Shown: positions 1 to 17,493 of the stretch, in pieces
Layout: every line of letters begins with the position of its first letter
How positions within the stretch are numbered: position 1 is the stretch's first letter
IMG/VR virus record: IMGVR_UViG_3300042892_000474
Coordinates: 1 to 64,000 of that record
Length of the DNA stretch: 64,000 nucleotides
Strand: one strand, 5' to 3'
DNA from: a virus
Notes under the pieces: model-generated
Database searches by the model: none
Told to the model about the DNA's origin: nothing
Seen by the model: the letters and a program-made list of their open reading frames with translations, nothing else
Program-made: the position numbers and the translations under genes

Positions 1-680
1 AATGTGCGCTCCCAATCACTGACTAGTTCAGGATTGTGTACTGTGCCTTCACCTTGATGCCATAGTGGGAATGTACCTACATATAGATTTGCTTCATTGC
101 TCCATACTAATGGCACGGGTTGAACTACTTCATATCCCAAAAGTTGAGCGGCTGCACAGAAATCAATATCTTCATTGCCGCCCTTTTCGTAACGCTCATC
201 TAAGTATCCAACTTTGTTCAATACTTCTCTAGTGAACATTACACAGAAAAAGACACCAAAATCCATATTAGTAATAGGTGAGTACTTCTTTAGTGAGCAA
301 GTTATTCCGCATTTAGGATTATCTTCAAAACCTTGATTCAATAGTTTAAGCCAATCACCTCTGTGTTGACCAAGAAGAATAGCGTCATTGTTTAGCATGA
401 CAAGTTTGTCACAAGTTGATACACGAATTCCAGCGTTTGTCGCTCTTGCATATCCAAGTGCATCTTTATTCCAAACAATCTTTAAGTGATCTGATAATCC
501 TAAATAGTCAAAACTAGCTTTTAGTTTGTCCAAATAGTCAGATGTGTTGTCTGTACAACCATTGGCACTTATTATAAGTTCAATGTCATTGATATGTGAA
601 TACTTCAACAGTGCTTCTATACACGGTTTTAAGAATTTATCACAATTGTTATATGTTGGTATTACGATACTATATTTCAT
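1..680 (-). CDS. Glycosyltransferase family 2 protein (3' end outside window)
   Basis: Not in the ORF track; translated by hand from ATG at 680: MKYSIVIPTYNNCDKFLKPCIEALLKY...IISANGCTDNT...GYARATNAGIR...VMLNNDA...VGYLDERYEKGGNEDIDFC. These are typical GT-A/GT2 motifs. SD AGAGGA lies upstream. Confidence 0.88.
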   Translation of the reverse strand, partial: MKYSIVIPTYNNCDKFLKPCIEALLKYSHINDIELIISANGCTDNTSDYLDKLKASFDYLGLSDHLKIVWNKDALGYARATNAGIRVSTCDKLVMLNNDAILLGQHRGDWLKLLNQGFEDNPKCGITCSLKKYSPITNMDFGVFFCVMFTREVLNKVGYLDERYEKGGNEDIDFCAAAQLLGYEVVQPVPLVWSNEANLYVGTFPLWHQGEGTVHNPELVSDWERT

Positions 681-682
681 GG

Positions 683-715
683 AATCCTCTAATCATTACT
701 TATGACTAGAGGATT
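683..715 (-). promoter_or_regulatory. 14-bp hairpin covering the GT2 Shine-Dalgarno, with a late-promoter-like CATAAGTA across its loop
   Basis: Minus strand reads AATCCTCTAGTCAT-AAGTA-ATGATTAGAGGATT-CC-ATG, with one G-U pair. Confidence 0.6.
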
Positions 716-728
716 GGGTTGTTAAAAA

Positions 729-992
729 TTAAAACTCAGGATATTCGCCGTACAATTGACCGTTAGAATATGCTCTGACAGCACGTACAAATTGAGAAGA
801 ATTCATATTGTTTGCTTCTAATACATTGTCAACACAACGCCAAAAGTCATTTAATACTGCAGGAGCACATGTGCATGTTGATGTTACACGATATGGAACG
901 TAACCAAACGGGGCACAATCAAAATCACTGTCAGATGTTACATTATAATTCTTCATGCCCTCAGTTGTTAGAATATAGAAATCGTATATCAT
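729..992 (-). CDS. Hypothetical protein (87 aa)
   Basis: ORF coupled to the upstream gene by a TAATG overlap; last gene of the lectin-array run. Confidence 0.6.
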   Translation of the reverse strand: MIYDFYILTTEGMKNYNVTSDSDFDCAPFGYVPYRVTSTCTCAPAVLNDFWRCVDNVLEANNMNSSQFVRAVRAYSNGQLYGEYPEF

Positions 993-14400: not shown

Positions 14401-17400
14401 ATACCTGTTGTACCTGATGCACCGGACCATCCACTAACACCGGTTGTACCTGAGAAACCACTTATACCTGTTGTGCCACTTGTACCTGAGAATCCACTTA
14501 TACCTGTTGTGCCACTTGTACCGGAGAATCCTGATATACCACTTGTACCAGAGAATCCTGATATACCTGAATCACCTGATATACCACTAACACCGGTAGT
14601 GCCACTTACACCTGACCAACCACTGATACCTGATGTGCCACTTGCACCGCTGAAGCCTGATGTACCGCTTACACCACTAGCACCACTTACACCACTAGCA
14701 CCACTTACACCTTGTACCAATGCTAAGATTATTTCAGCACCATTACTAAAACCAGTAGTTCCAGTTCCACTTGAAGATAATAATGTTACTGGAACAGTCC
14801 AGTAAAGATTTGACACAGAGGTTGGTGTTCCATTGATTTCCCATCGTTGGAAATTAGCACTATTAGCTTTGTCTTGTAATGTTATAACTTCAGTTTGTGT
14901 TAACAGTGCCAAATAAATATCAATGTCAATACCATCATTAGTTAAATGACTTACATTGATTTGAGTCGCACTTGTTTGTGTTGCGTTATTCCATAATATA
15001 TCACCGTTACCTGGATCACCTGATGTAGCACCCGTGTCTGCAAAGTATTCAAAGATAGTTGATGAGATACCACCGGCGCCTGATGTTCCACTAATACCTG
15101 ATGTACCGCTTATACCAGAGTAACCACTTTCACCTGATGTGCCTGATGTACCACTAATACCACTTGTACCTGAGAAGCCACTTTCGCCTGATGTACCTGA
15201 ATAACCACTAATACCAGTAGTACCGCTGAAACCTGATGTGCCTGATGTTCCACTAATACCACTTGTACCTGATAAGCCACTTATACCAGAGCCACTGAAA
15301 CCACTGATGCCTGATTCACCACTGAAGCCACTTATACCAGAGCCACTGAAGCCACTGATGCCTGATTCACCACTTTCACCTGATGTGCCTGATGTACCAC
15401 TAAATCCACTAATACCAGTAGTACCGCTGATACCTGATGTACCACTAATACCACTTGTACCTGAGAAGCCACTTTCGCCTGATGTACCTGATGCACCAGA
15501 AACACCTGACCAACCTGAAGTTCCACTAAATCCTGAAGTTCCTGATTGACCACTAATACCTGACCATCCACTAACACCTGTTTCGCCACTTGTGCCGCTG
15601 ATGCCTGATGTTCCACTGATGCCTGATGTTCCACTAGAACCACTGGTACCTGAATACCCAGTTGTGCCGCTTATACCCGAGGTGCCACTGATACCTGATA
15701 TGCCGCTTGTACCTGAGAAGCCACTGATACCTGTAGTACCTGAGAAGCCACTGATACCTGTAGTTCCTGAGAAGCCACTGATACCTGTAGTTCCTGATAT
15801 ACCACTAGTTCCAGACAATCCGGAATGTCCTGATGCACCTGATGCACCTGAATATCCACTTATACCGGATGTGCCTGAGTAACCACTAAAGCCACTTACA
15901 CCGGATCCACTAAACCCACTTATACCTGATGGTCCTTGTAACGGTCCTATATTAGTCCATGTATTATCACCATTACTTACTGCACCATCACCTGCACTAT
16001 ATCCGCCCCCTGCATTTTGAACGATGTACACTGTTCCGGCGGGTGCTCCGTTAGGAAGGAAAGTATAGTTATCTACACTACCTGCAATATTAATACCTCT
16101 ACCTGAAAATCCACTGACACCCGTAGTACCTGAGTATCCACTTACACCTGAACCACTATATCCACTGATACCTGATGTGCCGCTATATCCACTGATACCT
16201 GATATACCACTAGTTCCGGATGTGCCGCTGTAACCGCTTATACCACTAGTTCCGGATGTGCCGCTGTAACCGCTTATACCACTAATTCCCGAATAACCAC
16301 TAATACCTGACCATCCACTAACACCAGTAGTACCCGAAGTACCTGAATAACCGCTTATGCCTGAGCCGCTAAATCCACTGACACCAGTAGTACCTGATAA
16401 ACCACTTGTTCCCGAAGTACCACTTGTTCCCGAATAACCACTAATACCTGACGTGCCACTAGTACCACTAATTCCTGAACCACTAAAACCACTTACTCCG
16501 GATGTACCTGACCATCCTGATGTACCTGACCATCCTGATGTACCTGACCATCCTGATGTACCTGATGTACCGCTTATACCTGACGTACCAGATGCACCAG
16601 TAACACCACTGTAACCACTGATACCTGATGTTCCACTATAACCACTTATACCTGTTGTACCTGATGTTCCTGAGAAACCAGAAACACCAGAGCCACTATA
16701 TCCACTGACACCGGATGTTCCGCTTAAACCTTTTTGTCCTGAAGTACCACTAGCACCACTCCAGCCACTAATACCTGAACCACTAAAGCCTGATCTTCCT
16801 GAATGTCCTGAAATACCACTAAGACCTGTTGTGCCTGAAAATCCTGAACGACCGCTAAAGCCTGATATACCAGTTGCGCCGCTAAAGCCTGAAATACCCT
16901 GTTGACCACTAGTGCCGCTAGCACCGGAGAATCCAGACCAACCTGATCTACCACTGTAACCACTAGTACCTGAAAGTCCTGTTATACCTGTAATATTACT
17001 ACCATCACCGTATAGATAGTTTGCTGATACAATATTTGCAGTTACGTTACTTCCAGTTACAATATTACCTATATTCAGTGTGCCGGTTATCTTATTAAAT
17101 GTAAATCCTGCATTTCCACCAAAGCTACCTGCATCATTAAATTGTACTTGCGTATTAGAGCCTGCAGGGGCCGCATTACTGGCGCCGCCATTACCTCCGG
17201 CAGCCCAAGTTAAGTTCCCGTCACCATCAGTTTGTAAGAAATACCCATTCTCACCGCCTAGTATAGATACATTACTAACATCACCCAAAGCAATATTGCC
17301 TGTTATATTCAGTGTGTTGGCTGATACGGTGTTAGCAACTACGTTACCGCTAGGTACCATGACATTAGTAACGACATTGCCGTTGGCATCGACTACTATT

Positions 17401-17456
17401 TTTTCTGGTATACCTACGCTAAAGCCACCCAGGGAGTTAAACGATTCTGCTGACAT
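8448..17456 (-). CDS. Giant (Gly-X-Ser)n collagen-like virion fibre protein, 3002 aa
   Basis: Phage-fibre-like N-terminus ([21 protein letters not shown]), roughly 2,200 residues with Gly at every third position, five globular inserts and a non-repetitive C-terminus; GATAAATA box at 17486-17493. Confidence 0.8.
9130..16990. repeat. Degenerate 9-bp-period coding repeat (e.g. CCTGATGTA/CCACTAATA) with higher-order tandem units
   Basis: Examples: 18-bp unit x3 near 16500-16560 and 27-bp unit x3 near 15712-15795. Confidence 0.9.
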
Positions 17457-17485
17457 GTGTTATCCTAAAATATATTTTTATAATA

Positions 17486-17493
17486 TATTTATC
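17486..17493 (-). promoter_or_regulatory. Late promoter box GATAAATA for the fibre/lectin operon
   Basis: About 30 nt upstream of the fibre ATG, ahead of SD AGGA. Confidence 0.6.

Follow-up and report, generated by a model that had tools for sequence, protein, structure and literature searches.

The left end of IMG/VR record IMGVR_UViG_3300042892_000474 carries a giant collagen-like fibre gene, nine paralogous LamG genes (Laminin_G_3), a fibrinogen-related gene, three small open reading frames (ORFs) and a GT2 glycosyltransferase gene, all on the minus strand. The analysed stretch (the window) comprised the first 64 kb of the 106-kb contig, from contig base 1 (CheckV completeness 26%), and belongs to an uncultured T4-like jumbo myophage. 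A first-pass annotation had treated these genes as one surface-display system. In our comparisons, this supposed single system splits into two separable linkages that meet in this phage. One joins Ser-rich collagen-like shafts to GT2 genes, and the other joins a short C-terminal fibre module to LamG arrays. We give about even credence to the proposal that the locus is a late virion-fibre operon built from two exchangeable units, namely a fibre with its own glycosyltransferases and a distal cassette of module and LamG genes.

Two linkages and mosaic structure of the operon

About 250 loci fetched from IMG/VR were used for comparison (L-numbers below; L084 lies on the same contig as L044). The loci were collected partly with GT2 and the fibre knob as queries, and many of the contigs are closely related. 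Totals from IMG/VR scans are lower bounds and are given as such. The co-directional run of fibre, nine LamG paralogues, fibrinogen-like gene and GT2 described in the first-pass annotation was recovered in full. Its mostly translational coupling was also recovered, with overlaps of 1 or 4 nt at 10 of the 13 gene junctions as calculated from ORF coordinates.

The idea of one co-inherited system held for the Ser-rich shaft and GT2, which form a conserved pair in at least 16 contigs and in distant lineages, and failed for the three parts taken together. LamG arrays occurred mostly without a (GxS)n fibre or GT2, and most phages with a (GxS)n fibre and GT2 lacked LamG genes. Across loci, LamG genes thus assorted separately, whereas shaft and GT2 did not.

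Judged by sequence, the operon is a nucleotide-level chimera of a fibre-GT2 and a module-LamG lineage. Over 5 kb, the fibre shaft DNA matched that of L085, which has no LamG genes, at 87% identity. The DNA of LamG paralogues 2 to 4 and of the adjoining 88-aa ORF (orf88) was 93% identical over 2.6 kb to L109, with protein identities of 94–100% for the three paralogues. The L109 fibre (2,852+ aa) has a shaft that is not collagen-like and a C-terminal domain 79–90% identical to that of the window fibre. The left ~3 kb of the window was 100% identical to L093. The other LamG paralogues had their best relatives at 64–78% identity in different contigs (78% in L107 and 78% in L020) or were 100% identical to L093; paralogue 7 had no relative above 44%. 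Array content also differed between close relatives, with four more LamG genes in L084 in place of the fibrinogen-like gene and its partner ORF. The view that the LamG proteins are interchangeable modules agrees both with this variable content and with the near-identity of single genes to those of a phage with another shaft.

The only DNA repeat families detected in window positions 1–8500 were the LamG-gene junctions (~140 nt, 60–76% identical), which are likely to be crossover sites for unequal recombination. A diversity-generating retroelement was considered as the source of LamG variability and rejected, because no near-identical pair of template and variable repeats was present and the junctions reached only 60–76% identity.

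Collagen-like fibre

The fibre gene (8448–17456, minus strand) encodes 3,002 aa and matched Pfam Collagen (PF01391) with 891.5 bits in 22 stretches (cut-off 27.2). Its Gly-X-Y content amounts to 2,207 residues in seven segments, equivalent to 729 triplets with strict Gly periodicity and only short register breaks. At Y, Ser accounts for 87% and Thr for 10% of residues. The main residues at X are Thr (35%), Ile (19%), Phe (10%), Val (9.5%) and Trp (6.6%), with Glu at 4% and Arg, Lys and Asp each below 1%. Outside the repeats, the protein has terminal domains of 156 aa (N-terminal) and 223 aa (C-terminal), and the repeat segments are separated by five small globular inserts of three types, of which two measure 53 aa, two ~117 aa and one 77 aa. 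Scanned singly, neither of the terminal domains and none of the insert types had a Pfam family. In tblastn searches the N-terminal domain gave one uninformative match, and the C-terminal domain matched only RsoM2USA gp416 and S-SKS1; sequence search of the C-terminal domain against the PDB gave no match. Orthologous fibres measured 2,839–3,084 aa where complete, with one 5'-truncated copy of more than 3,316 aa, and kept the N-terminus, the insert types and Ser at 83–88% of Y positions.

Giant collagen-like fibres of other phages fell into classes with near-uniform Gln at Y (up to 98%), with Ser/Thr at Y, or with Pro at X and Ile at Y. Examples are L022, L038, L205, L207, L246 and others, several of them longer than 2,700 aa.

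The Gly periodicity and a C-terminal domain of the type found in trimeric fibres suggest that the fibre forms a trimeric triple helix. With a rise of 0.286 nm per residue, as in collagen, the repeat segments (2,207 residues) would extend over ~630 nm. The composition of the Gly-X-Ser region weighs against this reading. Pro makes up 0.5% and charged residues are very few, so that the imino-acid or charge-pair stabilisation typical of collagen, if not obligatory for it, is missing, and half of the X positions hold Ile, Phe, Val, Trp or Tyr. A Pro-poor, low-charge sequence with hydrophobic X residues is unusual among the stable collagen helices known to us. Hydrophobic and Thr residues at X also alternate weakly (lag-1 autocorrelation -0.23). 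These features would fit a polyglycine-II-type bundle or a beta-rich fibre, in which case both the length estimate and the analogy to BclA discussed below would fail. We regard such a structure as unlikely in view of the strict Gly periodicity over the 729 triplets with no more than short breaks, a C-terminal beta-domain of the kind known from trimeric phage fibres and spikes, and the existence of whole phage fibre classes that share the architecture and are equally uniform at Y, be it Gln, Ser/Thr or Ile. If the triple helix is correct, proline-free (GxS)n and (GxQ)n helices of at least 2,000 residues would be of interest as designable collagen-like materials.

GT2 glycosyltransferase and its pairing with Ser-type shafts

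The GT2 gene, a GT-A-type glycosyltransferase, lies at 3–680 (feature 1–680, minus strand) and is represented by 226 of ~250 aa, as the C-terminus lies beyond the contig end. The domain scored 61.5 bits in the window and 66.9 bits in a full-length 251-aa orthologue from L044 (83% identical), in both cases above the cut-off. The ED motif is present. Matches to chondroitin synthase, GalT1 and TagF were discarded as clues to the acceptor, as they were confined to the generic N-terminal nucleotide-binding part.

A scan of IMG/VR with the full-length GT2 returned 20 contigs at 75–100% identity, including that of L044 (as L084). In at least 16 contigs (GT2 75–84% identical), the stop codon of a (GxS)n fibre gene precedes GT2 by 48–50 nt with no LamG gene in between, and a GT2 protein of 663–708 aa is encoded directly after GT2. 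This larger protein contained methyltransferase domains, one of FkbM type, in both orthologues scanned (L044 and L093). A LamG array between fibre and GT2 was present only in the window, L084/L044 and L093. Since L093 is 100% identical to window positions 1–3081 and reaches 2.6 kb past the left end of the window, it shows which genes follow GT2 in this phage: 3' of GT2 are encoded a 663-aa protein with a GT2 and two methyltransferase domains (one FkbM) and then a third GT2-like gene.

The pairing recurred at greater distance. GT2 relatives with 38% identity (L104, L106) were again located behind (GxS)n fibres (Ser at 98–99% of Y positions), which end in another C-terminal domain resembling an intramolecular chaperone, and the (GxS)n fibres of L040 were paired with a triple-GT2 protein. 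About four independent GT2-(GxS)n lineages were distinguished. Over all fetched loci, a GT2 homologue was present within 8 kb of a collagen-like ORF in 12 of 18 cases for the Ser/Thr type, in 0 of 28 for the Gln type and in 0 of 16 for other types. Unique knob fibres had GT2 downstream in 8 of 8 cases if collagen-like and in 2 of 34 if not. On these sequence grounds, GT2 clearly appears to track the Ser-rich shaft and neither the knob nor the lectin genes. The rule that this GT2 family follows only Ser-type shafts seems to be new.

Several observations count against a fibre-directed GT2. Six Ser/Thr-type fibres had no GT2 homologue within 8 kb, and the protein reads NND at the position where many GT2 enzymes have DxD. 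No cultured phage encoded this GT2 at E ≤ 1e-8. In addition, kinship among the contigs and the choice of queries make the GT2-fibre counts, like those for module and LamG given below, overstate the number of independent events, although their direction is clear. The GT2 genes could instead act on the host envelope, as in superinfection exclusion, on phage DNA or on another virion protein, their position next to the fibre being inherited synteny. Weak PHROG matches to GtrB-like O-antigen conversion enzymes point that way, as do the six fibres without GT2 and the reading of glycosyltransferases in host-recognition islands of aquatic T4-like phages as modifiers of host O-chains (PMC7029224). We nevertheless hold an acceptor other than the fibre to be rather improbable. 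The ~250-aa enzyme is predicted to be soluble and cytoplasmic, with no GtrB-type membrane anchor seen, and its gene is part of the late fibre operon, where it stands behind a conserved hairpin. The pairing, moreover, persists at 38% GT2 identity with a different fibre C-terminus and never involves Gly-X-Gln shafts, and SgtA and BclA3 of C. difficile (see below) provide a precedent.

The first unit of the proposed operon would accordingly comprise a giant trimeric Gly-X-Ser/Thr collagen-like fibre and dedicated cytoplasmic glycosyltransferases, that is, GT2, the GT2 fused to two methyltransferase domains and the third GT2. The Ser and Thr residues at Y would most likely be O-glycosylated by these enzymes, perhaps with methylated sugars. 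Half of the exposed X residues in this proline-free helix are hydrophobic, and such glycans would keep it soluble and make it stiffer. The radical-SAM and SPASM enzymes and the UDP-glucose dehydrogenase-methyltransferase fusion encoded farther along the contig (see below) fit this reading. To our knowledge, phage-encoded virion glycosylation has been shown experimentally only in mycobacteriophages; the fibre-GT2/methyltransferase pair of abundant uncultured jumbo phages would bring fibres into its range, and Ser/Thr at Y would provide a simple rule for the prediction of glycosylated phage collagens.

C-terminal module, knob and linkage to LamG genes

The C-terminal domain of the fibre consists of two parts. 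A ~71-aa module (fibre residues 2827–2897; 8766–8978, minus strand) with the core motif GQLFSI..G.IFSVND.SGIP is placed between shaft and knob, and the all-beta knob of ~105 aa (residues 2898–3002; 8451–8765, minus strand) was modelled with AF2 at a pLDDT of 74–85. In structural comparisons (VIA-align) the knob model matched the C-terminal domain of the Acinetobacter phage Solidus tailspike (Z 11.2, rmsd 1.8 Å, 85 aligned residues), residues 74–177 of the CBA120 TSP4 N-terminal fragment (7rej; Z 9.5, rmsd 2.5 Å, 93 aligned residues) and a Klebsiella phage KP1 baseplate chain (Z 8.2), with unrelated entries at Z 3–4. The knob is encoded in at least 500 IMG/VR stretches and is common to fibres with and without LamG arrays.

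It is the module that co-varies with LamG arrays, a linkage that we believe to be new. Where the downstream sequence sufficed (42 unique knob fibres), LamG genes followed in 9 of 12 cases if the module was present and in 0 of 30 if it was absent (Fisher p = 5e-7, ignoring phylogeny). The (GxS)n fibres of relatives without LamG genes lacked the module. The shafts of module-bearing fibres are unrelated to one another, being collagen-like, rich in Thr/Ala/Gly/Asn repeats, rich in Ala/Thr/Ser repeats, or almost absent. A LamG gene was found within 8 kb at 48 of 80 module loci. In many loci no gap separates the fibre stop codon from the first LamG gene, the two overlapping or adjoining directly, and often the module is N-terminal in a fibre gene that directly follows a LamG array and the 88-aa ORF.

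Standalone proteins of ~200 aa that consist of module and knob alone, equivalent to a fibre end without shaft, were observed in L121, L123, L124, L187 and L231.

The second unit of the proposed operon would be a distal cassette recombined in from another fibre lineage and made up of the module before the knob, a small LamG array, the fibrinogen-related protein and a small conserved ORF. Its proteins would most likely attach at or near module and knob, so that the fibre end gains mixed, quickly replaceable lectin-type heads for glycans of host or particle surfaces. If so, the linkage of module and LamG genes would be a concrete mechanism by which aquatic phages swap host-recognition heads with the fibre shaft left untouched. 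More tentatively, and with the odds against it, the module might act as a socket of general use, by which any shaft that acquires it, the putatively sugar-coated ~0.6-µm window shaft included, could bear standalone heads of LamG, fibrinogen-like or related lectin type. Such a socket would give hundreds of uncultured aquatic phages a form of lectin bet-hedging comparable to that of umbrella toxins (see below).

Attachment at the module has several points against it. Structure prediction for the module reached only low confidence, LamG genes were missing from the vicinity of 32 of 80 module loci, and none of 371 unique LamG ORFs was fused to module or knob. Because such fusions were not found, it is co-occurrence that suggests docking, and co-occurrence could reflect simple co-transfer. 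The LamG and fibrinogen-like proteins might then be independent virion decorations or short fibres located elsewhere (baseplate, neck or capsid), or might not enter the virion, in a hyperplastic region that exchanges fibre cassettes as blocks. We assign this alternative a minor share of the probability, larger than that of the two rivals considered above for helix and GT2. Besides the missing fusions and the LamG-free module loci, it would account for the many fibres downstream of arrays in which the module is N-terminal and hence not distal. The conservation of the first and last LamG strands would follow from a jelly-roll fold alone, and LamG members of ~400 aa keep the first strand with an extra domain inserted after it. 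Attachment to the fibre end is favoured by the contrast of 9 of 12 to 0 of 30 among otherwise similar knob fibres, by an association that spans unrelated shaft types, and by the many loci where the first LamG gene runs into or abuts the fibre stop codon.

LamG array and companion genes

LamG paralogues 1 to 4 (7769–8434, 7128–7772, 6466–7131 and 5759–6469, minus strand) are joined by 4-nt overlaps; the start of the second was corrected to an internal ATG. Paralogues 5 to 9 are located at 4748–5428, 4134–4748, 3436–4134, 2720–3439 and 1741–2529 (minus strand), with a 64-aa ORF (2529–2723, minus strand) within this stretch. Seven of the nine passed the Laminin_G_3 cut-off of 27.6 bits (48–72 bits), and the remaining two aligned over their full length to passing paralogues by BLASTP (E 1e-11 to 1e-28). 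The proteins measure ~205–262 aa and are 24–42% identical to each other, with strong conservation of the first ~45 and last ~25 residues and variable cores. A profile of all nine matched solved lectin-type domains (best 5e-12), among them an S-layer-domain protein, NTNH, pentraxins, a sialidase CBM40 and an arabinanase CBM. The family is present in at least 580 IMG/VR stretches, and nearly all of the 79 loci examined were tandem arrays of 2–13 standalone genes.

At L006, L021, L048 and about 50 other loci, LamG members of ~400 aa have the conserved N-terminal strand at the very start, and an extra domain of 170–250 aa is inserted before the remaining core.

The LamG domain of the window recurs, end motifs included, as the C-terminus of S-PM2 p176, a virion structural protein according to its RefSeq annotation that belongs to a gene block described as putative adhesin components (PMC9910659). 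S-SKS1 encodes chains with up to four LamG copies, and Laminin G3 domains have been described on tail fibres of jumbo phages by Iyer et al. (PMC7824862). Because of the p176 annotation, the adhesin block, the solved lectin-type relatives and the jumbo-phage tail fibres, the LamG proteins are best read by analogy as virion-borne, glycan-directed binding heads. Carbohydrate binding is suggested by the relatives of solved structure (CBM40, arabinanase CBM and pentraxins).

The conserved acidic 88-aa protein orf88 (5436–5702, minus strand) is a regular companion of LamG arrays. The first LamG loci contained 45 such ORFs, including S-SKS1 SWZG_00004, and with later loci added the matches rose to 65; orf88 is often found directly 5' of a fibre gene that begins with the module. 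AF2 predicted a small alpha/beta fold (pLDDT 77.6) whose best PDB match reached Z 4.6. Neither a Pfam or PHROG family, nor an ESM Atlas neighbour, nor a clear PDB match was obtained for it.

The fibrinogen-related (FReD/intelectin-like) protein of 250 aa (992–1744, minus strand) matched PF00147 with 26.9 bits (cut-off 22), the match covering residues 30–86 and only profile positions 17–71 of the ~220-residue FReD. By phmmer against the PDB, MFAP4, tenascin and ficolin-3 were found at 1e-6 to 5e-5, again over residues 29–87 only. In the ESM Atlas the protein fell among phage protein clusters of which 26–35% of members carry PF00147. An 87-aa ORF (729–992, minus strand), for which no family was found, comes after the fibrinogen-like gene in every case; the pair of fibrinogen-like gene and 87-aa ORF recurs in L026/L053, L036, L037 and L093.

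Comparison with known systems

The general theme is already known from aquatic phages. The host recognition cluster (HRC) of pelagimyophages and cyanomyophages is a hypervariable island of fibre genes and glycosyltransferases, and these phages also have concanavalin-A-type domains and collagen repeats in proteins of their structural operon (Zaragoza-Solas et al. 2020, PMC7029224). HRC and window locus are alike in combining hypervariable fibres, lectin-type domains and glycosyltransferases in T4-like phages. They differ in position, as the HRC lies between VrlC and gp14, whereas the window locus follows gp23 and a desaturase-like gene. The HRC paper describes neither the (GxS)n-GT2 pairing nor standalone LamG arrays or the module linkage (PMC7029224).

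For the fibre-GT2 pair, the closest system is BclA3/SgtA of C. difficile, in which the gene for a Gly-X-Thr/Ser collagen-like filament likewise adjoins a GT-A glycosyltransferase gene. Experiments have shown that the collagen repeats are O-glycosylated there: SgtA attaches O-GlcNAc to their Thr residues and, when the peptides carry Ser substitutions, to Ser as well (PMC7157674). Oligosaccharides on the collagen-like region are also known for B. anthracis BclA, according to work in the reference list of PMC9614988. With 3,002 aa, the phage fibre is several times longer than BclA3 (58 kDa predicted mass). It further differs from BclA-type proteins in that X is not Pro, Y is Ser rather than Thr, and the C-terminal domain has a fold of phage tailspike type. 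Unlike BclA3/SgtA, it is set in a virus particle and is followed by three GT2-type domains and methyltransferases. Mimivirus L230 glycosylates a proline-poor collagen-like protein that is likewise encoded by the virus, by hydroxylation of Lys and addition of glucose to hydroxylysine (PMC9614988). In contrast, no hydroxylase partner was seen in the window fibre operon, and the likely acceptors are Ser and Thr.

For the LamG proteins, the S-PM2 p175–p177 block and the multi-LamG proteins of S-SKS1 belong to the same family and share the N- and C-terminal motifs of the window paralogues; S-SKS1 also has an orf88 homologue and a module-carrying protein. In S-PM2 and S-SKS1, two to four LamG domains are fused in large chains, whereas the window has nine separate coupled genes behind a collagen-like fibre.

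The knob model shares its predicted beta-sandwich fold with the N-terminal domains of CBA120 TSP4 (7rej, Z 9.5), which are related to T4 gp10. We take the matched TSP4 region to be the platform where other tailspikes or receptor-binding proteins dock. The window knob, however, is placed at the fibre C-terminus, while the TSP4 domain is found beside the N-terminal baseplate anchor. The fold also ends a tailspike depolymerase (Z 11.2) and is therefore no proof of docking by itself. The knob occurs both with and without LamG arrays.

The umbrella toxins of Streptomyces carry diversified paralogous UmbA lectins on UmbB/UmbC spokes for combinatorial, bet-hedged targeting (PMC13274773). The resemblance to the window locus is analogy only, as the proteins are unrelated and the particle is a bacterial toxin and not a virion. 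UmbA proteins have a trypsin-like docking domain and mostly beta-propeller lectins, unlike the LamG proteins of the window.

Transcription signals and GT2 hairpin

Late-promoter boxes noted in the first-pass annotation were confirmed in the form of two ATAAATA sequences, one at 17486–17492 (minus strand), 30 nt upstream of the fibre ATG, and one at 5722–5728 (minus strand), 20 nt upstream of orf88, which stands mid-array. No copy of the exact T4 late promoter TATAAATA occurred in the first 22 kb. ATAAATA is depleted across the window (13 found, 26.6 expected), and several copies are located just upstream of late genes. Because the box precedes the fibre start and again the mid-array orf88, the locus probably forms two late transcription units. 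A scan for sigma-70 promoters and terminators remained at chance level except for one clean terminator after the capsid gene.

The 48-nt spacer in front of GT2 contains a conserved hairpin (683–715, minus strand), with the GT2 Shine-Dalgarno sequence covered by its 3' arm and a conserved GTCATA in its loop. Compensatory changes were found at 6 of 7 predicted pairs across 12 loci, and the hairpin is kept irrespective of the preceding gene, be it the fibre gene, a LamG gene or the 87-aa ORF. It may regulate translation of GT2 or be a site of RNA processing.

Phage affiliation and neighbouring genes

The window encodes a Gp23 capsid protein, portal, prohead protease, a gp55-type late sigma factor (35188–36219) and baseplate genes. 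Counterparts of the Gp23-type capsid protein with 64–67% identity are found in Vibrio phage 2.275.O, Sinorhizobium phage Phosso, Pseudomonas phage PA5oct and 350-kb Escherichia phages. When the first 20 kb were compared with cultured phages by megablast, only fragments of the capsid gene were matched. The fibre locus is situated directly downstream of the head module, behind gp23 and a membrane fatty-acid-desaturase-family gene (17899–18687, probable true start 18599) between capsid and fibre genes.

The desaturase-family gene is also found 5' of the fibre in the relatives L085 and L100. It is preceded by a clean terminator hairpin (18622–18643) and a CATAAATA box 5 nt before the ATG. The interval from this gene to the fibre promoter holds, on the plus strand, an ORF of 126 aa (17529–17909) with four CxxC pairs and an LCANCN-type end; it has no Pfam family and may encode a small zinc-ribbon or HNH-like protein. 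A 1,671-aa protein (24753–29768, minus strand) showed tape-measure and tail-lysin-like matches and a GH19 chitinase-type lysozyme domain. Directly after gp25- and gp6-like baseplate genes begins an ORF of ~6,490 codons (47205–63998, continuing to about contig base 66686; L259 1–2686), possibly a gp7-like baseplate or fibre protein of hugely increased length. Past the baseplate genes, contig bases 64001–104000 (L259/L260) encode several radical-SAM, SPASM and B12-binding radical-SAM enzymes as well as a fusion of UDP-glucose dehydrogenase and methyltransferase.

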